A DNA stretch of 64,000 nucleotides from NCBI GenBank assembly GCA_016789445.1, contig JAEUQT010000001.1, positions 131,603 to 195,602 of the forward strand. The letters run 5' to 3'. The DNA comes from a bacterium (GTDB lineage: Bacteria > Patescibacteriota > Minisyncoccia > Phycocordibacterales > UBA2100). This document shows, piece by piece, positions 16,597-60,822 of this stretch (positions within the stretch are counted from its first letter, which is position 1; each line of letters starts with the position of its first letter). Made by a program: the position numbers and the translations under genes. The notes below the pieces were generated by a model. The model did not search any database and was not told the DNA's origin. It saw nothing but the letters and a program-made list of their open reading frames with translations.

Positions 16597-16610
16597 ATTA
16601 CATGCGAGTA

Positions 16611-16747
16611 CGCCAGACAAGGATACTTTGGAAACCCTCGGTTTTCCAACGGTCGCCGAAGCGACCTGCCTTCCGACACGGGGAACTCCCGTTCCCCGAC
16701 CCCCTCCCTATCCAAGTCTGGCAACAAATCTCGTTGCACTCAATTTG
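16611..16747 (-). repeat. tRNA-trailing element, subfamily 2 (after tRNA-Gln)
   Basis: It shares gaaaccctcggttt and cttccgacacgg[hairpin]ccgacccctccc with the copy at 21842-21989. An inverted copy of the tRNA 3' end (16712-16729) forms an 18-bp hairpin with 16743-16760. A degenerate direct copy (cgccagacaaggat) lies at 16611-16624. Confidence 0.7.
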
Positions 16748-21724: not shown

Positions 21725-21800
21725 TGGAGCCGAAGACCGGGATTGAACCGGTGACCCCGTCTTTACGAAAGACGTGCTCTACCAACTGAGCTACTTCGGC
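21725..21800 (-). tRNA. tRNA-Thr (anticodon CGU), CCA encoded
   Basis: GCCGAAG TA GCTC..GAGC A CGTCT TTCGTAA AGACG GGGTC ACCGG TTCAATC CCGGT CTTCGGC T CCA. Confidence 0.9.
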
Positions 21801-21841
21801 AATGCGGATATCCTACGCGAAAATGCTGGATTTTCAATCTT

Positions 21842-21989
21842 ACGGTCCGGGATTTCACTGCTCGCCGTATTCTCGGCTGCGCTTTCGAAACCCTCGGTTT
21901 CGAATAACTTCCGACACGGAGGGGGTCCGGTGGGTCCCCCTCCGACCCTCCCCCGTTCAATCCCGGTCGGGCCTCTCGCTACGCTCGTG
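21842..21989 (-). repeat. tRNA-trailing element, subfamily 2 (after tRNA-Thr GGU)
   Basis: Same conserved blocks as 16611-16747. The inverted copy gttcaatcccggtcg (about 21953-21967) is complementary to the tRNA T-arm/acceptor. The degenerate direct copy acggtccgggatt lies at 21842-21854. Confidence 0.7.
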
Positions 21990-25670: not shown

Positions 25671-25899
25671 GAGTGACGGGACTCGGTCACAGATATTTCT
25701 TGCGCCGTCGGACAGATTTTTTCGCGACCATAGGCATCGTCTCGGCCAAGAGCTCATTCGTCGCCGTCGCTCCTCATTCCTCTCGGCCCTGATTTTGCGA
25801 CCCCGTCTGCTGACGGGTCCGCCGCAAAATCTTTCGAGTCCCGCCACTCTGCTGAAAAACGCAACAACCCCGACGGCATGCGTCGGGGTTGGCGTTTTG
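25671..25899 (-). repeat. tRNA-trailing element, subfamily 1, composite (after tRNA-Asp)
   Basis: The direct copy gagtgacgggactcg at 25671-25685 matches tRNA 25903-25917 and is followed by GTCACAGATA. The inverted copy is ttcgagtcccgccactc at ~25832-25848. A terminator hairpin CCCCGACG/CGTCGGGG with U-run (25855-25888) lies next to the tRNA. Confidence 0.8.
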
Positions 25900-26370: not shown

Positions 26371-26539
26371 TGTCGAGGGTGGGGGTCGGTCACGAATAAT
26401 TTCTGTCCCGTCGGACAGAAATTTTCGCGACCCCGGCTCGCGGTCTCGCCTGCTGGCGAGACATCGCTCCGCCTTTCGACCCCCACACGCTGTGTGCGCA
26501 GGCACACAGCCCTCGACACAAATCCACTTCGTATATTTG
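26371..26539 (-). repeat. tRNA-trailing element, subfamily 1 (after tRNA-Met)
   Basis: The 18-nt direct repeat tgtcgagggtgggggtcg occurs at 26371-26388 and 26540-26557. Core hairpins lie at 26388-26432 and 26443-26462. The inverted copy is cgacccccac (26477-26486) + hairpin + cctcgaca (26511-26518). Confidence 0.85.
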
Positions 26540-26613
26540 TGTCGAGGGTGGGGGTCGAACCCACGACCTTGGCTTTATGAATGCCACGCTCTAACCAACT
26601 GAGCTACCCCGAC
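26540..26613 (-). tRNA. tRNA with CAU anticodon (elongator Met, or Ile2 if lysidinylated)
   Basis: GTCGGGG TA GCTC AGTTGGTTA GAGC G TGGCA TTCATAA AGCCA AGGTC GTGGG TTCGACC CCCAC CCTCGAC A. It has a 31:39 A-A mismatch. Confidence 0.85.
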
Positions 26614-27165: not shown

Positions 27166-27425
27166 GCAGGGCGGGCTTGGTCAAGAACATTTCTTGCTTC
27201 CGTCGAAGCAAGAAATTTCTCGGCCCTGATGTTGCGGGGGCGGGCTTGGTCACGGATAATCTTCGCGCCGTCGCGCGAAGATTTCCGCGACCCCGGCTCG
27301 CGGTTTCGCCCACTGGCGAAACATCGCTCCGCCTTGCAAGTCCAGCACGAAAAGCGCACCGGCGCTTTTCTCCCCGCGACTGCACAAACACAAAACCGCC
27401 CGTACGGCGGCTTTGTGTTTGCTTG
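27166..27425 (-). repeat. tRNA-trailing element, subfamily 1, tandem (one short plus one full copy; after initiator-like tRNA)
   Basis: The direct copy gttgcgggggcggg at 27231-27244 matches 27425-27438. A second degenerate copy gcagggcgggcttg lies at 27166-27179. The core hairpin P-a is at 27303-27322. The inverted copy is tgcaagtcc + hairpin + ccccgc, and a terminator hairpin lies at ~27391-27415. Confidence 0.85.
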
Positions 27426-27497
27426 TTGCGGGGGCGGGACTTGCACCCGCGACCTCCAGGTTATGAGCCTGGCGAGCTACTACTGCTCCACCCCGCT
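27426..27497 (-). tRNA. tRNA-Met (CAU), initiator-like, with non-canonical D- and T-loops
   Basis: A GCGGGG TG GAGC AGTAGTA GCTC G CCAGG CTCATAA CCTGG AGGTC GCGGG TGCAAGT CCCGC CCCCGCA A. It has a 1:72 A-A mismatch, no GG in the D-loop, and G at T-loop position 55. Confidence 0.75.
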
Positions 27498-34896: not shown

Positions 34897-35388
34897 CTAC
34901 GGCGTTACGCAGAAGCGCGCGGTCGCACCACTGTCAGAGCAGTCGATGCCGCCGATCGGATTGGTATCAACATCGCCCGCAGGAACGGCCGAAGATCCAC
35001 CTTCGATATCAGCACCAATGACATAGCCTGGGCACGCTGGAGACGTTGTCGTACATGCAGTCGTACCGTCTGCCGCGAGCGCTGCATAGCTGTACGGCGC
35101 GAGCGTCGTCGGATCAAGCGGAAGCGCCGAGATGTACTTGCTGGTGACGAGCACCGACGTGGTTGCTGAGGCAAACGCTTCGGTAGCCGTCGGGAAACGC
35201 TGGTTTGCATCGTAGTAAAGCTCAAGCGCCAACTGAAGCTGCTTGATGTCGGAGATACGGCGTGCATCGCGACCCTTCTTACGGGCGCTGTTGAGTGACG
35301 CCAGGACGACCGACGAGAGGATACCGATGATGGCGATCACCACGAGGAGCTCGATGAGGGTGAAGCCGCGCTGAGATCGATTAAACAT
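34897..35388 (-). CDS. type IV pilin (major-pilin-like), paralog A
   Basis: MFNRSQRGFTLIELLVVIAIIGILSSVVLASL. The C-terminal domain contains Cys pairs. Confidence 0.88.
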   Translation of the reverse strand: MFNRSQRGFTLIELLVVIAIIGILSSVVLASLNSARKKGRDARRISDIKQLQLALELYYDANQRFPTATEAFASATTSVLVTSKYISALPLDPTTLAPYSYAALAADGTTACTTTSPACPGYVIGADIEGGSSAVPAGDVDTNPIGGIDCSDSGATARFCVTP

Positions 35389-35425
35389 AGTTATGATTGC
35401 GTTAATCCGCTAATGAATAACAAAC

Positions 35426-35872
35426 TTACGGTTGCTGACAGTACATCGGATCGGTGCAGGTTACGCTACCCACCGTACCGTCGATGTCCTGACTGAGCGC
35501 TGCGTTCGCCGTATCCTCAAGCGTTGCGCCGAGGATGTAGCTCGCACAGACACCGCCGCTTTGCGTACATGCTGCACCCGCGCTCGTAAGGTTATCGAAC
35601 GAGTACGAGCCCGATTGAGGATCTGTCGGCACGACTGAGATGTATGTCGGCGCAAGCTGCGAGAGAGCATCCGGATACTCGCTCGAGTTATTGTCATAAA
35701 AGAGCTCGAGCGCCAACTGAAGCTGCTTGATGTCGGAGATACGGCGTGCATCGCGACCCTTCTTACGGGCGCTGTTGAGTGACGCCAGGACGACCGACGA
35801 GAGGATACCGATGATGGCGATCACCACGAGGAGCTCGATGAGGGTGAAGCCGCGTTCATTTCGTGAAAACAT
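35426..35872 (-). CDS. type IV pilin (major-pilin-like), paralog B
   Basis: MFSRNERGFTLIELLVVIAIIGILSSVVLASL. Residues 8-56 are identical to paralog A at the DNA level. Confidence 0.88.
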   Translation of the reverse strand: MFSRNERGFTLIELLVVIAIIGILSSVVLASLNSARKKGRDARRISDIKQLQLALELFYDNNSSEYPDALSQLAPTYISVVPTDPQSGSYSFDNLTSAGAACTQSGGVCASYILGATLEDTANAALSQDIDGTVGSVTCTDPMYCQQP

Positions 35873-35978
35873 AGAATTGTGAATAAACGGTTAAAATTTG
35901 ATCGCTATGCACGCTACGCGCGATGCAATCATCATACGGCACATCACACTCCCCTTGTCGAGTGGGTGTGTATAACCG

Positions 35979-44415: not shown

Positions 44416-44585
44416 TGCGGAGAGGGAGGGATTCGGTCACGGATAATTTTCTGCTGAAAATTTCCGCGACCCCGCCTCGTCGCCTACGCTCCTGCGACTT
44501 TCGAATCCCTCCGTTTCGCTATGCGAAACCGCCACCCTTTCGGGCGGCGCTCTCCGCAAAAAACTTGCGGGTCTCGTTTTTTTTG
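44416..44585 (-). repeat. tRNA-trailing element, subfamily 1 (after tRNA-Ser) - clearest exemplar
   Basis: The 20-nt direct repeat tgcggagagggagggattcg occurs at 44416-44435 and 44584-44603. The hairpin GGTCACGGATAATTTTC tgct GAAAATTTCCGCGACC lies at 44435-44471. The inverted copy is ttcgaatccctcc + two small hairpins + ctctccgc. Confidence 0.88.
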
Positions 44586-50982: not shown

Positions 50983-51148
50983 GTCACGGATAATTCAATG
51001 AGTGTCAATATCGAGTCCCCAGGGATAATTTTGTCGCCGTCGCTCCAAAATTTCCCCGGGCCTGGCTCGCGGTCGCGCGTACTCGCGCGACATCGCTCCG
51101 CCTCGGACCAGTAAACAAAAACAGCGCTCAATGCGCTGTTTTTGATTC
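50983..51148 (-). repeat. tRNA-trailing element, subfamily 1 (after tRNA-Ile), no distal direct repeat
   Basis: GTCACGGATAAT at 50983. There is an inner hairpin CCCAGGGATAATTTTG..CAAAATTTCCCCGGG, P-a GTCGCGCG tact CGCGCGAC (51072-51091), catcgctccgcc, and a short inverted match ggaccag. A bidirectional terminator ACAGCGC tcaat GCGCTGT lies at ~51121-51139. Confidence 0.8.
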
Positions 51149-56346: not shown

Positions 56347-56730
56347 GGGGATGATTGGCTTCGACAGGGAGATCGATGCATATACATGCATGGCGGAAGT
56401 GGGTATCTTCCCAAAAACACCCAAACTCTAAGTGCAAACAAAACTGCACGGGGGGTTCTCTCGCCTATTCAGGTGAAGGACCTCGGCTTTGCTTTCGCGT
56501 AAGCCAAGGCAACCGTTCGTTCAGAGGTCTCCAATACTCTGATGCGAGCGTCATATCATTGGATACGGCTTCCCTATCACACCGTAGGTTAGTCTAAAGA
56601 AAGAGTGTCCGACGCGAAGCGATCTTGTGCGTTCCATACTCTCCGCGTTCAAAACCTTTGAACGCCCTACGCCTTGTAGATGTGTGTATGCGTTTCTCTT
56701 TGCACCGCGGTTCGATTCCGCGCATCTCCA
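56347..56730 (+). ncRNA. ssrA: tmRNA (SsrA)
   Basis: The 5' GGGGATGATTGGCTTCGACAGGGA pairs with the 3' ...GCGG TTCGATT CCGCG CATCTCC A (G3-U70). The tag frame 56434-56499 encodes ANKTARGVLSPIQVKDLGFAFA, then TAA. No encoded CCA. Confidence 0.93.
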
Positions 56731-56921
56731 CAGCCAATGCAAGCCGCCTTCCAGGCGGCTTTTGCATTTGCATTGCGACGGTGGAGATGAAGAAAGCGCC
56801 TGCGCGCTTTCTGCGGGGGTCTCGAAAGGCGGAGCGCTGTTCCGACAGCAGGCGGAACCGCGAGCCGGGGTCGCGGAAATTCAAAGGCGACGGCGTTTGA
56901 ATTATCTGTGACCGATTCCGC
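56731..56921 (+). repeat. trailing element, subfamily 1 (after tmRNA)
   Basis: Terminator AAGCCGCC ttcca GGCGGCTT TT (56741-56765). Inverted copy GGTGGAGATG + hairpin + GCGGGGGTCTCGAA. Core AGGCGGAGCGCTG, P-a 56839-56858, CCGCGAGCCGGGGTCGCGGAAAT...ATTATCTGTGAC (ends 56912). The direct copy cgattccgc at 56913-56921 matches 56713-56721. Confidence 0.85.
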
Positions 56922-56972
56922 CGCCGATATTCCTTCATGCAACCTTATGTGTTTTGATACGTCCACTGAGAT

Positions 56973-58298
56973 ATGCCGAAGCGATACTGGTGGAAGGATG
57001 CGAAGATATACGAGCTCTACGTCGATCGCTTCGCGGGGAATTTCCAGAACCTGACGGCACAATTGGATTACCTGGAGCGTCTTGGCATCAACGCACTCCA
57101 CATCCTCCCCCACTACCCGTCGCCCATGGCCGATGGCGGCTATGACGTGATGGAATATCTCAACGTCCGGCCGGAACTCGGCACGATCGAGGATTTCGAT
57201 ACCTTCCTCAAAGAAGCGCACCGCCGCGATATCAAAGTCATCATCGACTTCGTCCTCAATCACGTCTCAGAACATCATCCTTGGTTCTTGGAGGCGCGAT
57301 CATCGAAAGACAACAACAAGCGCGATTACTTTTTATGGAGCGAGAGCGGACACGAACTCGCCCTCGGTTGGAATGCCTTCCCCGACATCAAGCCTGGCAA
57401 TTGGATATTCAACGAAGAGACGCAGGACTACTACTATGCGACCTTCTATCCGCAGCAGCCGGATCTGAATTGGGACAATCCGGAAGTCTTCGCAAGCATG
57501 ATGCAGAACATGGATTTCTGGGCCGGCCGCGGCGTGGACGGCTTCCGCTTGGACGCAGCGGTGACGCTCATCAAACGAGACGGCACGCTCTCGAAAGGAT
57601 TGCCGGAAACGCACCAGCTCATCAAACGCATCCGCAAACACTTGGACACGAAATTCGGCGGCGAGATCGTCCTTCTTGCTGAAGCGCATCAGCACGTCAA
57701 AGAGATGAAGACGTATTTCGGGGACGGCGACGAATGCCATCTCGTGTACCATTTCTCACTCACCGAGCAGCTCTTCCTCGCTCTTATGCGCAATGATCGC
57801 ACCGAACTCGATGCGATGCTTGAGGAATCACGCGACATCCCGGAGAACTGCCAGTGGGCGATCTTTCTGCGCAATCACGACGAACTCTCGCTCGCGACAC
57901 TCGCCCCTGAAGTACGCACCGAGCTCATCACCTATCTTGATCCGAAGAGCGAATATCTTTTCAATGGCGGCGCAGCGACCGCCAAGAGGTTGGGCAGCAT
58001 GTTCGACGAAGCGAAGCTGCGCGAAGCGATTTCTCTCCTCTACTCGCTTCCGGGGGCGCCTATCATGTACTACGGCGACGAGATCGGCATGCAGAATCTT
58101 CCACGTACGGAAGGCGTGATCGACAGCCGCGTGTACGTCCGCGGTGAATTCGATTGGCTTGAGGCCGGGCTGCAGCGCAGTGATCCTGATTCCCTCTACA
58201 ACTTCACGAAGGGTGTCATCCGTAAATCACTCTGGCCATATAAGCGGGATTTCAATTCACCTCCCCCAGAAGAGGGATCGCCAAGCGACGACGAGTAG
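56973..58298 (+). CDS. GH13 alpha-amylase-family glycosidase (trehalose-synthase/amylosucrase-like N-terminal and catalytic domains)
   Basis: WWKDAKIYELYVDRF, GYDV.DY, DFVLNH, GFRLDA and the LLAE...NHD motif series. Confidence 0.85.
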   Translation: MPKRYWWKDAKIYELYVDRFAGNFQNLTAQLDYLERLGINALHILPHYPSPMADGGYDVMEYLNVRPELGTIEDFDTFLKEAHRRDIKVIIDFVLNHVSEHHPWFLEARSSKDNNKRDYFLWSESGHELALGWNAFPDIKPGNWIFNEETQDYYYATFYPQQPDLNWDNPEVFASMMQNMDFWAGRGVDGFRLDAAVTLIKRDGTLSKGLPETHQLIKRIRKHLDTKFGGEIVLLAEAHQHVKEMKTYFGDGDECHLVYHFSLTEQLFLALMRNDRTELDAMLEESRDIPENCQWAIFLRNHDELSLATLAPEVRTELITYLDPKSEYLFNGGAATAKRLGSMFDEAKLREAISLLYSLPGAPIMYYGDEIGMQNLPRTEGVIDSRVYVRGEFDWLEAGLQRSDPDSLYNFTKGVIRKSLWPYKRDFNSPPPEEGSPSDDE

Positions 58299-59556
58299 TC
58301 TCACCTTTGAAGAGTTGCCGCGTCCGCTCCGGCATGTCTCCTCGCTCGCCAAGATGCGCGCCGAATTTCATCGCCTGGAAACTCGAACCGAGGAAGACTG
58401 CGTGTTTACCGTATCGTTCCGATATCGCATCCACGCTCTCGAACACCATCTTCAATCCTTGGGATTCTTCCACTTTGCCGAAAAGATCGAGCTGAAGACT
58501 GTCCGCGGGGCGCAGCTGCGCGAGGGTCACGCCGCTCGCACGATACAGCTTCCCGTTCTCGAAAACCTGCGGGAAGAATTTAGCGACCTCGCGCAGGACA
58601 TCCTGCGGGACATTCGTGGGGTGCGGGAGCTTCACTTCGATACCGTGGTATCTGAAATCCTGTGTCTTGAGAAAGAAGAACACGCGATCACTCGCGAGAT
58701 TCCATCGGCGCGCCTTGATGCACGCATTCTCGACATTTTTGGAGAGCTGACTGAAGATAAACTTCGCATCGCGCAATGGTGGCGTGAAGGTCTTGGTCTT
58801 CTGGATGCTCTGGTAGCTGGTCTTCTTTTCCGTCGTGAGTGGATAGATGGCTTCGCCATTGAGCTCCCGCCAGATCTCCTGCACCGGCTTCGAAACTTTC
58901 GCACGCACCCATGGTTCGTTCTTGCGCGCAAAATCGAGCGCGCTCTGAATACCGAACTTATTGAGATACGCCGCAGTGTTTGGCCCGATCCCCCATACAT
59001 TCCCTACCGGCAGCTTTCCGAGAAATTTTGATGCGTCGCTGAGCGGTATCGAGGTGAGACCATCAGGCTTCTTCCATTTCGAACCGACCTTCGCCAGGAC
59101 TTTCGTCGCCGAGAGACCCACACTGAACGTGATGCCGAGCTTCACCTGCAGCTCCTGCTTAATGGAATGCGCCATGTCGTGGTAGTTCATCCGATTCACG
59201 CGGCGCATACCGGTGAGGTCCGCGAAGCATTCATCAATGGAATACTCCTCGACGGCAGGCGTGTAGCGACGCACGATCTCGTACATACGCTCTGAATATA
59301 GACTGTAGGTCTCGTAATCCGACGGCAGCACGATCGCATCTGGGCACGCTTCAAGAGCTTCGCTTAATTTGACCCCGCGCTTCACGCCGCGACGCTTCGC
59401 CTCGTAGGTGCACGCAGAGACGATGCCGCGCTCTTTGCCGGTGATGACCGGCTTACCGCGCAGCTTTGGATTCTTTGCCACTTCGACTGCAGCAAAGAAA
59501 GAGTCACCATCCACGTGCAGGATGGCTCTGGGATACGAGTATGACTTACCCCACAT
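58252..59556 (-). CDS. dinB: Y-family DNA polymerase IV
   Basis: ILHVDGDSFFAAVE, SIDECFADLTG and SVGLSATKVLAK motifs. It converges on and overlaps the GH13 gene by 47 nt. Confidence 0.93.
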   Translation of the reverse strand: MWGKSYSYPRAILHVDGDSFFAAVEVAKNPKLRGKPVITGKERGIVSACTYEAKRRGVKRGVKLSEALEACPDAIVLPSDYETYSLYSERMYEIVRRYTPAVEEYSIDECFADLTGMRRVNRMNYHDMAHSIKQELQVKLGITFSVGLSATKVLAKVGSKWKKPDGLTSIPLSDASKFLGKLPVGNVWGIGPNTAAYLNKFGIQSALDFARKNEPWVRAKVSKPVQEIWRELNGEAIYPLTTEKKTSYQSIQKTKTFTPPLRDAKFIFSQLSKNVENACIKARRWNLASDRVFFFLKTQDFRYHGIEVKLPHPTNVPQDVLREVAKFFPQVFENGKLYRASGVTLAQLRPADSLQLDLFGKVEESQGLKMVFESVDAISERYGKHAVFLGSSFQAMKFGAHLGERGDMPERTRQLFKGETTRRRLAIPLLGEVN

Positions 59557-59576
59557 AGGCCATGTACGTCCGGACT

Positions 59577-59635
59577 GTCACGGATAATTTTCTGCTGAAA
59601 ATTTCCGCAACCCCGCCTCGACACCTAAAGTGTCT
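59577..59635 (-). repeat. solo partial copy of the subfamily-1 core (no tRNA adjacent)
   Basis: GTCACGGATAATTTTCTGCTGAAAATTTCCGCAACCCCGCCTCG differs at one base over 44 nt from the Ser-linked copy at 44436-44479. It lies 20 nt upstream of the dinB start. Confidence 0.8.
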
Positions 59636-59682
59636 CCGGCCTTGCGAAGCTCCATGTATTCGCTTCTCACCCCAGACCATAG

Positions 59683-60168
59683 CTACCTGAACTTAAGCGT
59701 GTAGGCTGGCTTGAATGCAGGAAGTGGTGCGTACCGCGAAGTGCGTGGTAGCGGCGTCCGCATGCGTGATGGCCGGATCTGTTTCGCAGGCTTTACCGGA
59801 TTCGTCTCGGCAAGAAATTCCATGACCGCGAGATTCACCGTAGCGAATTGCCGATCACTGATGCGACCGAGACGACGGATAAGCTGGTCCTTCCGCAGCA
59901 TGCGCATCTGCGAAAGGGTTCCGGTGCGGTTCGCACCCTTGAGTGACGTAAGAAAATAAAACGGGGTTTCCTTACCGCTCGCACGCGACGTAAGCGGCAA
60001 TCCCCAGAACGTATCGGTACCGAGCGTACGGAACACCAAGACCGGCCTCTCAGCTGCAGCGTCGGTTGCCGAAGGCACCGAACACCACCAGATATCCTGC
60101 GCACGATATTTCACTTCTCGTACGCGCGCTGTCTTCTTCGAAAAAATGTGGGAAAGCTGTTTAAACAT
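59683..60168 (-). CDS. MazF/PemK-family toxin-like protein with basic C-terminal tail
   Basis: DIWWCSV......ERPVLVF.......FWGLPLTS.........F......G...TLSQMRMLRKDQLIRRLG.IS...F matches the solitary PemK-like pattern. Confidence 0.7.
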   Translation of the reverse strand: MFKQLSHIFSKKTARVREVKYRAQDIWWCSVPSATDAAAERPVLVFRTLGTDTFWGLPLTSRASGKETPFYFLTSLKGANRTGTLSQMRMLRKDQLIRRLGRISDRQFATVNLAVMEFLAETNPVKPAKQIRPSRMRTPLPRTSRYAPLPAFKPAYTLKFR

Positions 60169-60187: not shown

Positions 60188-60760
60188 CTAATACTTCCGT
60201 ACGACGCCCGTGACTACTGCTTCGACTTTGAACGATTCTGTCGGATAAATGTTGCTGAACTTCTCATTCGCCGGCTCCAGATAATGATTCCCCTTCTTGT
60301 CCTGTCTCAGGTATTTCATGGTGTACTCGCCGTCGACCATCGCGATCACGATCTGCCCGACCTTGTACGTGTTGCGACGCTCGACGACTACCATGTCTCC
60401 CGGACGGATCCCCGCATCGATCATGGATTCGCCTTTTACTTTCAAGATGTAACTCGATTCCTTATTCGGCGTCAGGAACTCGTCGAAATCCATCGTATCG
60501 AGCAGCTCCTCCTCCGCTGCCGACGGAAAGCCCGCTTCGACTAAGCCAAGGAGAGGGACACCTCCTCCGAAATTTCCGGGAGAAAGACGGCCCTGTCGGT
60601 CTTTGACGACCACACCCTCGTCGACAAGTTTTTCGATGAGCTTGAACACAGCGTTCTTGGATCTAAAACCCGTGAAGACCATGATCTCCTTGTAGCCCGG
60701 GAAACGCCCATGCTTCTCATAAAACGCGACCAACTTCTGTTTATAGTGCTCATACGTCAT
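60188..60760 (-). CDS. lexA: LexA repressor (wHTH plus S24 peptidase)
   Basis: VEAGFPS, the cleavage region, KVKGESMIDAGI (Ser) and AMVDGEYTMKYL (Lys). ORF 60188..60808. The first ATG lies inside the operator, so the start is set at MTYEHYKQK. Confidence 0.88.
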   Translation of the reverse strand: MTYEHYKQKLVAFYEKHGRFPGYKEIMVFTGFRSKNAVFKLIEKLVDEGVVVKDRQGRLSPGNFGGGVPLLGLVEAGFPSAAEEELLDTMDFDEFLTPNKESSYILKVKGESMIDAGIRPGDMVVVERRNTYKVGQIVIAMVDGEYTMKYLRQDKKGNHYLEPANEKFSNIYPTESFKVEAVVTGVVRKY

Positions 60761-60793
60761 ACATGTTTTCCCTAGTAATTCCTTATGGAGTTC

Positions 60794-60822
60794 AGTGTAG
60801 TGAACCATGGTTCACCAGTCAA
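60794..60822 (-). promoter_or_regulatory. lexA promoter TTGACT-N17-TACACT with an embedded SOS (Cheo-type) box GTGAACCATGGTTCAC
   Basis: The -35 is at 60817-60822 and the -10 at 60794-60799. The perfect 16-bp palindrome at 60800-60815 contains GAAC-N4-GTTC. Confidence 0.75.

Follow-up and report, generated by a model that had tools for sequence, protein, structure and literature searches.

The window analysed here is a stretch of 64,000 nucleotides (nt) from a Patescibacteria genome (GenBank assembly GCA_016789445.1, contig JAEUQT010000001.1), and our subject is a small element that follows its transfer-messenger RNA (tmRNA) gene, ssrA. The element is one copy of an apparently undescribed family of protein-less cassettes of ~100-250 bases, found at the 3' ends of tRNA, tmRNA and some protein genes, nearly always in Patescibacteria, also called the candidate phyla radiation (CPR). 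The initial annotation of this DNA had listed five features downstream of ssrA, i.e. an inverted acceptor segment, a small hairpin, a further segment, a core and a repeat of the gene after GTGAC, and all five lie where it had placed them. The gene itself is matched at full length by the Rfam model RF00023 (56347-56733, 112 bits). The features of the locus are as follows:

56347-56731, plus strand: tmRNA gene (ssrA), intact, called by ARAGORN
56713-56731, plus strand: copy X, the ssrA gene end in use, i.e. the last 19 nt (CGATTCCGCGCATCTCCAC), from the T-loop C to C74
56732-56779, plus strand: spacer containing the terminator, a hairpin at 56741-56761 and a T run, from a terminator scan and the fold
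56780-56789, plus strand: acceptor arm GGTGGAGATG, complement of the tmRNA 3' acceptor strand, the discriminator and a C (CATCTCCAC)
56790-56812, plus strand: inter-arm hairpin, AAGAAAGCGC-CTGC-GCGCTTTCT, from the fold
56813-56826, plus strand: T-arm position, GCGGGGGTCTCGAA, from sequence comparison
56827-56912, plus strand: conserved core of 86 nt ending in GTGAC, 96.5 bits with the family covariance model
56828-56866, plus strand: core hairpin domain D1
56870-56912, plus strand: core hairpin domain D2
56908-56912, plus strand: GTGAC, the core terminus
56913-56921, plus strand: remnant of the displaced gene end X', CGATTCCGC, 9 nt repeating 56713-56721

The discriminator A of ssrA is position 56730, and the genomic continuation CAG means that the CCA end is encoded in part only. 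The acceptor arm is the reverse complement of CATCTCCACC and agrees with the genome in nine of its ten bases, the genome having an A at 56732; in the predicted fold it pairs with 56723-56731, and the spacer forms the centre of the imperfect palindrome that links X to the arm. Homologues of this arm occur in 10 further tmRNA-linked copies. The hairpin with the CTGC loop recurs as well, at the window copies Met1 and Met2 and at L012, L032, L036, L053, L059, L104, L110, L117 and others (numbers with L denote loci compared with the window). The segment at the T-arm position agrees with the complement of the window tmRNA in only 8 of 14 bases, where the family norm is a near-perfect complement of the T loop and the 3' strand of the T stem, and it is nearer to tmRNAs with a CCCCC T stem, e.g. 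L199. The T stem CCGCC in the remnant CGATTCCGC agrees with that of the relatives L123, L124 and L133, and by its sequence the remnant is evidently the residue of the displaced original ssrA 3' end. Since the T arm fits at only 8 of 14 bases and the repeat remnant is only 9 nt long, we regard the ssrA copy as old and decayed. A given 10-mer is expected by chance in 200 nt with a frequency of ~2e-4 and a given 9-mer at one fixed position with ~4e-6, and the arrangement seen here recurs in fixed register in 43 other tRNA-linked copies.

The covariance model and the anatomy agree that the element after ssrA belongs to the same family as the elements behind tRNA genes, as the initial annotation had proposed. 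We built the model from 35 copies and inspected the 330 nt downstream of every window tRNA in the orientation of the tRNA. A common layout lies behind tRNA-Asp, both tRNA-Met genes, tRNA-Ser and tRNA-Ile(tat). There are nine model matches in the window, each reported on the same strand as the adjoining tRNA or tmRNA gene (one of the nine, at 59575-59641, is not adjacent to a tRNA), with sense-strand scores of ~97-103 bits against 12-25 bits antisense at the same places. The core at ssrA scores 96.5 bits (E ~5e-20) on its own strand and 11.6 bits on the opposite strand.

The family is widespread in Patescibacteria. A core pattern made of GGGTCGCG, 12-32 bases and TTATYYGTGAC gave the loci L001-L120, i.e. 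at least 120 genome loci, nearly all of Patescibacteria; Saccharibacteria, Paceibacteria/Parcubacteria, related groups and a few Elusimicrobia are among the loci listed. A tRNA or tmRNA gene ends within 350 nt upstream on the same strand in 94 of 125 nhmmer core hits, and on the opposite strand in eight. The genes upstream of the core hits cover 37 anticodon species plus tmRNA, which is among the commonest targets: at least 11 copies are linked to it (the window, L008, L036, L038, L057, L085, L088, L114, L123, L175 and L199; tmRNA genes seen only by Rfam were added to this tally), and L044 has a displaced copy in addition. Clustering the cores by genome or by target is uninformative at the length of the core.

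Read 5' to 3', a cassette locus consists of the gene with its replacement end X, a terminator, the arm, the two-hairpin core ending in GTGAC, and the displaced end X'. The arm, i.e. the segment directly 5' of the core, is the reverse complement of the tRNA 3' region in 43 tRNA-linked copies. Its inner end lies opposite tRNA position 54 in 32 of these and opposite position 70 in 11, and GTGAC is followed by the direct repeat, whose start lies exactly 2 nt beyond, at position 56 or 72. The first 10 nt of the arm agree at 8-10 positions in the 32 copies of the position-54 class. Overall the arm covers 2 nt upstream and 8-25 nt downstream of the joining point, and it is often divided by the CTGC-loop hairpin into an acceptor part and a T part. 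A terminator-like hairpin is normal between X and the arm, and its flanks prolong the pairing of X and its trailer with the arm. The bases -2 and -1 of the junction vary (TT, AG, GA, CG, GG, TC, GT, CA).

The repeat formed by X and X' is 9-27 nt long at tRNA and tmRNA genes and ~75 nt at the protein gene topA (3 to ~75 nt overall), and it usually ends at the mature tRNA 3' end or a few bases from it; intact X' copies of 15-27 nt are found in other family members. At ssrA both the direct repeat of the gene's 3' portion and a restored gene are present, the tmRNA being full length in Rfam. On insertion GTGAC becomes fused to the first base of X', which is displaced downstream and decays, and the gene works with X. 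The arm seems to be carried by the element rather than copied anew at each insertion, since the T-arm segment of the window fits neither X nor X' and the imperfect arms of L008 are identical in both L008 units.

The encoded CCA positions show a pattern of their own. Most tRNA and tmRNA genes linked to an element end in N73-C-A, one C short of CCA, and full CCA is encoded by unoccupied genes, e.g. tRNA-Thr(cgt), and by many ssrA genes of relatives. X' has CCA and the X in use lacks it in L123, L112, L117 and L073, and the reverse holds in L005 and L090, which suggests that the repeat tends to end inside the CCA positions.

The core is folded, and its structure is specific to one strand. For 35 copies RNAalifold predicts two hairpin domains, and compensatory changes are present in 20 of 30 pairs. 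In 81 model-aligned copies 96.2% of the cells are paired, against ~40% after a shift of the partners by a few columns, double (compensatory) changes occur in 26 of the 30 pairs, and none of 500 shuffles equals the observed value. One G-T pair is kept in 79 of the 81 copies, and G-T exceeds A-C by 46:8 in the variable stem pairs. The hairpins D1 and D2 sit 14 nt and 12 nt from the core ends. The covariation and the G-T excess indicate selection for the structure on the gene-sense strand, whether RNA or single-stranded DNA (ssDNA). Mini-hairpins of the type C-GAA-G (GCGAAGC, ACGAAGT) appear frequent in stems and spacers, e.g. in L059, L055, L104, L014, L095 and L026; this motif is unusually stable in single-stranded DNA and would favour a DNA over an RNA intermediate.

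Small size, no protein gene, a shared structured core, an antisense arm and breadth of targets make the cassettes unlike any family we tested. In Rfam, searched with the gathering threshold on the window and with E up to 10 on 56700-56960, only tmRNA and tRNA were found. Among 2.9 million viral contigs there were four matches only, all by chance and in coding sequence. We found no description of such elements in the literature, to which our access was limited, so that an earlier description is possible; the 2025/2026 papers on group I introns that sit within tRNA genes in Patescibacteria concern anticodon-loop introns and are unrelated.

Comparison of relatives establishes that the ssrA copy is an insertion, in line with the recombination origin at the 3' end of ssrA that the initial annotation had put forward. 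We collected 80 metagenome loci with SmpB, whose gene immediately precedes ssrA, as the anchor; ssrA is present in ~50 of them, and three of these (L123, L175, L199) have a core there. Among the closest relatives (SmpB 90-93% identical), L121, L122, L124 and L125 lack the ssrA copy and L123 carries it, and it is from this presence/absence polymorphism, with most of the close relatives lacking the copy, that we conclude insertion. L123 and L175 show in order the tmRNA body, X, the element, GTGAC, the displaced original end (CGAT..CCCATCTCCACCA in L123) and the native terminator. The spacer is conserved between the tmRNA copies L123 and L199 of distant genomes (AATTACAAAAAC...GTTTTTGTTTGTG), which suggests that it moves along with the element. 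Further signs of mobility are a core of another type that entered the T loop upstream of an older copy in L097, tandem or partial copies in L066, L074 and the window Met2 locus, and the two units of L008, which are 98.8% identical and 813 nt apart.

Other sequences were noticed at these sites. The 3' end of ssrA in L124, L191 and L173 holds a different insertion with a small GIY-YIG-like open reading frame (ORF; MYYVYILKS..YIGCTGDL..HNSG, read by eye); the flanking repeats include GCTTCGCTAAAGC and GAAGCTTTAGCGAAG, and L173 has a CCACCTCCAC repeat 985 nt downstream. In L133 an arm-like GTGGAGAGG without a core follows the ssrA terminator and may be the remnant of a lost element.

Core copies without an upstream tRNA obey the same layout at the 3' ends of topA, rplL and another protein gene. 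At topA (L011, L105, L043 and L027; identified by Pfam) the cassette sits ~75 nt before the stop codon, and the reading frame is completed by X. The peptide encoded by X is also that of X' (KTIPERCSDKLCPNHNPHK in L105), the two differing by ~11 synonymous changes, which implies that X' was recently a working end and that X was brought from another lineage. The topA arm is the reverse complement of positions -2 to ~+10, perfect to X and through G-T pairs to X', and the final two arm bases follow the codon of the host (GA or CA). There is no identity of 6-8 bp at the junction, the element reading ..TGTGAC|CAAAAACC and the target ..GGGCA|CGAAGACC. At rplL (L034; Pfam) the cassette sits 18 nt before the stop, with X AAAGTTACATTCAAGTAG, arm TTGAATGTAACTTTTC and X' AAAGTTACATTCAAATAA, and here too the differences between X and X' are synonymous and leave the peptide unchanged. 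L116 is the third protein-gene case. The end X is thus brought by the element, and staggered-cut target-site duplication, a hairpin-capped break and tandem-inversion duplication were set aside, X at topA and rplL being imported and not a local copy.

The initial annotation had argued that whatever creates or uses these elements must recognise the acceptor/T-arm module, the only part that tmRNA shares with tRNAs. This does not hold: the same layout occurs at the protein genes, and the second tRNA class joins at position 71/72 and not in the T loop. The property constant among targets is their complementarity to the arm and not an acceptor/T-arm shape.

Our favoured interpretation, to which we give a probability of roughly 0.55, is that 56732-56912, together with the supplied end 56713-56731, is an old, partly decayed copy of a protein-less, non-autonomous integrative cassette that acts as a folded single strand with its arm as a guide or mimic. 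Such a cassette would carry a replacement end X, its own terminator, an arm complementary to the target, and the two-hairpin core ending in GTGAC. The active form would be the folded gene-sense strand, as ssDNA or RNA, in which the arm would be base-paired either to the target or to the X of the cassette itself, and this pairing would set the cut 2 nt from the junction of arm and core, beside hairpin D2. As an internal guide or a target mimic, the arm could let one core serve dozens of targets. We infer an internal guide because one core is used at more than 40 unrelated targets, the junction bases are not conserved, and the topA junction has no run of identity such as tyrosine recombinases require. 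The enzyme for cutting and joining would be supplied in trans; an IS200/IS605-like single-strand transposase would fit best, or a recombinase acting on a folded site as in CTX phage and the integron attC sites.

The cassettes share features with several known systems without matching any of them. Like the integrative elements at the 3' ends of tRNA, tmRNA or protein genes (attP sites of phages, of integrative and conjugative elements and of islands; phage 21 and e14 at icd) and their non-autonomous derivatives, e.g. cis-mobilisable elements, they insert within the last bases of a conserved gene, supply a replacement end, leave the displaced end as a direct repeat, join in the T loop or at the 3' terminus, and favour tmRNA as a target. 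Unlike them, the cassettes are only ~100-250 nt long with no protein gene and no integrase found, they use one structured core at dozens of unrelated targets instead of one att site, and they have a built-in arm in a fixed 2-nt register with no overlap identity at the topA junction. The IS200/IS605 elements (IS608, ISDra2) and PATE are alike in a structure on one strand with hairpins near both ends, in a cleavage site ~12 nt 3' of a hairpin and in a plausible restoration of the donor site, and their choice of site, for which an internal guide base-pairs with the target, resembles the role proposed for the arm. However, IS608 guides have 4 nt and fixed tetra- or pentanucleotide targets, whereas the cassette arm has 8-25 nt and targets that vary freely; those elements carry no copy of a target gene end, and no Y1 transposase was seen among the scanned window ORFs (27 of 68).

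In the CTX phage attP(+)/XerCD system and the integron attC sites, inverted target-like copies on one strand fold into a target duplex, with one active strand, structure taking precedence over sequence, and both copies side by side after integration. The cassettes show the same, with X or X' pairing with the arm in the predicted fold in a strand-specific manner. There the recombinases are known and the target is a single fixed one (dif, attI), whereas the target-like stem of the cassettes differs per lineage and a conserved three-way junction core is added. The group I intron internal guide, the exon-binding sites of group II introns, the IS110 bridge RNA and the TnpB/IscB omega RNA likewise combine a scaffold with a variable segment complementary to the uninterrupted target across the insertion point, and reverse splicing by a guide-bearing ribozyme would yield the order arm, core, 3' target part, the same as in the cassettes. 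But no intron, ribozyme or guide RNA of Rfam matches, the 86-nt core is too small for a group I or II intron, no recombinase, TnpB or IscB adjoins, and the cassette guide pairs with one strand only. Miniature inverted-repeat transposable elements and REPINs are also small, non-coding, repeated, hairpin-rich and intergenic; in the cassettes, by contrast, the inverted repeats are target-specific and not element termini, the repeat of 3 to ~75 nt ends at the gene end and is no fixed target-site duplication, and orientation and position relative to the gene are strict.

Several points weigh against the single-strand cassette. No enzyme was found, the 27 of 68 window ORFs that were scanned, including all those around ssrA, being housekeeping genes, and no autonomous version was seen, nor any true match in the viral contigs. 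The model does not account for the acquisition of a new X with a matching arm for a new target, nor for any role of the arm's 2-nt overhang. Arm-tRNA mismatches are not biased towards either strand (21 G-T and 21 A-C, a noisy count). Part of the patchy distribution might be due to natural transformation with homologous recombination, for which no dedicated enzyme would be needed. In addition, the loci L001-L120 were gathered by a pattern in D2, so that the conservation of D2 is partly a selection effect, and the alignment of 81 copies was fitted to the covariance model.

An alternative hypothesis is double-stranded site-specific integration, in which the cassettes would have arisen by deletion from larger islands or prophages, or be small versions of these that are mobilised in cis, with movement by tyrosine integrases that act on the T loops and 3' ends of tRNA and tmRNA genes, and with arm and core as accessory sequence of attP; we consider this unlikely. 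Integrase sublocations in tRNA genes are reportedly known from work by Williams in 2002, and the joining points in the T loop and at the 3' terminus mirror them. A replacement gene end also follows the classical logic of phage 21 and e14 at icd, the units in L044 and L008 stand at the far end of a stretch with cargo genes, and the GIY-YIG ORF insertions likewise occupy ssrA 3' ends of relatives. Protein integrases are specific for one att site, though, whereas one core is found here at more than 40 target sequences; the topA junction lacks a 6-8 bp identity, and a strand-specific pairing with G-T pairs would be needless for a double-stranded site. The cassettes of 100-250 nt contain no ORF, and no integrase lies beside any copy examined, the neighbours in the window, L011, L034 and L044 being housekeeping or restriction-modification genes, nor are there true viral matches. 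The restriction-modification genes by the L044 unit are found elsewhere without the core. They had been a candidate for an autonomous element and were rejected, as the same genes occur after dnaK as an unrelated cassette. They comprise a Type II DNA methyltransferase and a widespread Patescibacteria protein of 760 aa without a Pfam domain (L044, 2471-6177 and 6513-6628; L205-L208); the pair adjoins the L044 unit and stands elsewhere after dnaK, and a LOOT RNA (Rfam RF03000) is near it in L044.

Core and arm could instead be an RNA of benefit to the host, i.e. a 3' extension of highly expressed transcripts that serves processing, termination or stability, or a decoy resembling tRNA, with a copy of the gene end as its closing helix; mobility would be secondary. 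The structure on the sense strand, its strong covariation over deep divergence (L123 and L199 differ in every stem and keep the pairing), the invariable co-orientation with the upstream gene and the high expression of the targets (tRNA, tmRNA, rplL) would suit such a role. Yet a terminator usually lies between gene and core, no promoter-like site was found, and Rfam has no match. Close relatives manage without the element, X', arms and cores decay freely (the tmRNA, Ile and Asp copies of the window), and tandem and nested copies look selfish, so that we rate this explanation as quite improbable.

The initial annotation had also raised an RNA-templated (retro) origin, in which a reverse transcriptase, primed by a tRNA or switching templates, would have copied a mature, CCA-ended tRNA or tmRNA into the cDNA that now forms the inverted arm. 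Its clue was that the window arm reads CATCTCCACC and matches CCA at +2, where the genome has A; L054 similarly has CCAG in the arm against genomic CAAG. The arms as a whole, compared with the CCA and the trailers across copies, match genomic trailers. A strict automatic test has eight copies favouring the genome, one favouring CCA (a mis-hit) and two ties; a looser scoring (18 genomic, 11 CCA, 7 ties) was discarded, as many of its arm calls were spurious. By manual reading ~25 clear arms, eight tmRNA copies included, run into the genomic trailer rather than CCA (CAAA, CTGA, CACG, CATA, CTTG, CTCG); the tmRNA trailers so copied are TGG in L175 (arm CCATGG), CCG in L038, CTGA in L036, and CAA in L085, L114, L057, L123 and L199. 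The arm CCACCG... of the window differs from its own trailer CCACAG... by one base at the start of a mismatched stretch of the palindrome, and CCACCG is itself the genomic trailer in L038 and also occurs in the L044 arm, the next base being G and not A. The initial annotation was thus right to call its single-base match weak. Some copies look shortened at the 5' end (27178-27246; an isolated GAATTATCCGTGAC after the Ile copy), as polar copying could yield, but most apparent 5' truncations are short-D1 variants, which also confound an nhmmer tally of truncated copies, and we dropped polar copying as evidence. No reverse transcriptase is among the 27 window ORFs scanned. The arms traverse the whole T loop. 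The arm has the same layout at topA and rplL, genes without CCA, which makes an RNA-templated origin unnecessary. A retro-origin is largely refuted and now seems very improbable.

Returning to the single-strand cassette, we speculate, as a possible but doubtful extension, that arm and core form a natural guide plus scaffold, of RNA or ssDNA, that directs an enzyme acting in trans to cut and join in a fixed 2-nt register, i.e. a programmable insertion system, guided by nucleic acid, that was retargeted repeatedly to the 3' ends of conserved genes across Patescibacteria; the spare gene end in each cassette would make its insertion harmless. If the cassettes move as we favour, they make up an abundant class of minimal mobile elements in Patescibacteria, apparently undescribed, in which the insertion address is written in nucleic acid, unlike that of a protein integrase with one fixed site. 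This would explain how one element type can occupy most tRNA genes, tmRNA and some protein genes of very small genomes and leave them undamaged, and it would point to an enzyme yet to be found that might be reprogrammable. Through the decoy 3' fragments of tRNAs that they create, the changes in encoded CCA and the additional terminators, the cassettes affect the annotation of tRNA and tmRNA genes in CPR genomes; they are also presence/absence markers for strain-level comparison.

The family copies that the covariance model matches in the window are:

27247-27334, minus strand: copy behind tRNA-Met (27425-27497), 103 bits
27178-27246, minus strand: second, partial copy at that tRNA-Met, 22 bits
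26387-26474, minus strand: copy behind tRNA-Met (26539-26613), with a perfect 19-nt X/X' repeat and a full arm
51016-51103, minus strand: copy behind tRNA-Ile(tat), with the junction at the tRNA 3' end and the arm TGGTCCG
44434-44499, minus strand: short-D1 copy behind tRNA-Ser(gct), with a 21-nt X/X' repeat
25684-25832, minus strand: composite copy behind tRNA-Asp (matches 25743-25832 and 25684-25742)
56827-56914, plus strand: the ssrA match as given by the model
59575-59641, minus strand: full short-D1 copy without a neighbouring tRNA, 51.8 bits

A MazF-like ORF (59683-60168) ends 40 nt before the copy at 59575-59641, which stands immediately upstream of dinB (58252-59556; Pfam), with a LexA-like gene nearby at 60188-60808. 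The copy has an extra upstream module, GGGTGAGAAGCGAATACnTGGAGCTTCGCAAGG, which is also present in L076, L082, L066 and L062.

The cassette layout is common to several cores that look unrelated. A second core type, GGGGGTCGGGGAAC..GTTCCCCGTGTCGGAAG..GGAAAACCGAGGGTTTCC, has the same order of arm, core and repeat and is found in the window at 16600-16746 (after tRNA-Gln) and 21800-21988 (after tRNA-Thr-ggt), and in L074 and L097. At least two further types exist, ..GGGGTACTGAnnCTGTAAGnnTCGA.. in L017, L040, L079 and L024, and CGGAWT..GCACCAGCG..AWTCCGCGTTTT in L026. In L056, L059 and L071 a palindrome of 18-20 nt, CTGCCTRCCGGCAGGCAGG, lies inside a displaced tRNA-Ser 3' fragment and may be a miniature palindromic element. 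L056 also has, at 1213-1286, an ARAGORN tRNA with the anticodon TTA, which would read the UAA stop, together with a cassette of the family; it is either a suppressor tRNA or a miscall. Elsewhere in the window a direct repeat of 181 nt (35210-35390 and 35694-35874, 93% identical, spaced 484 nt) lies within the adjacent small minus-strand ORFs 34897-35388 and 35426-35872, which look like tandem paralogues.

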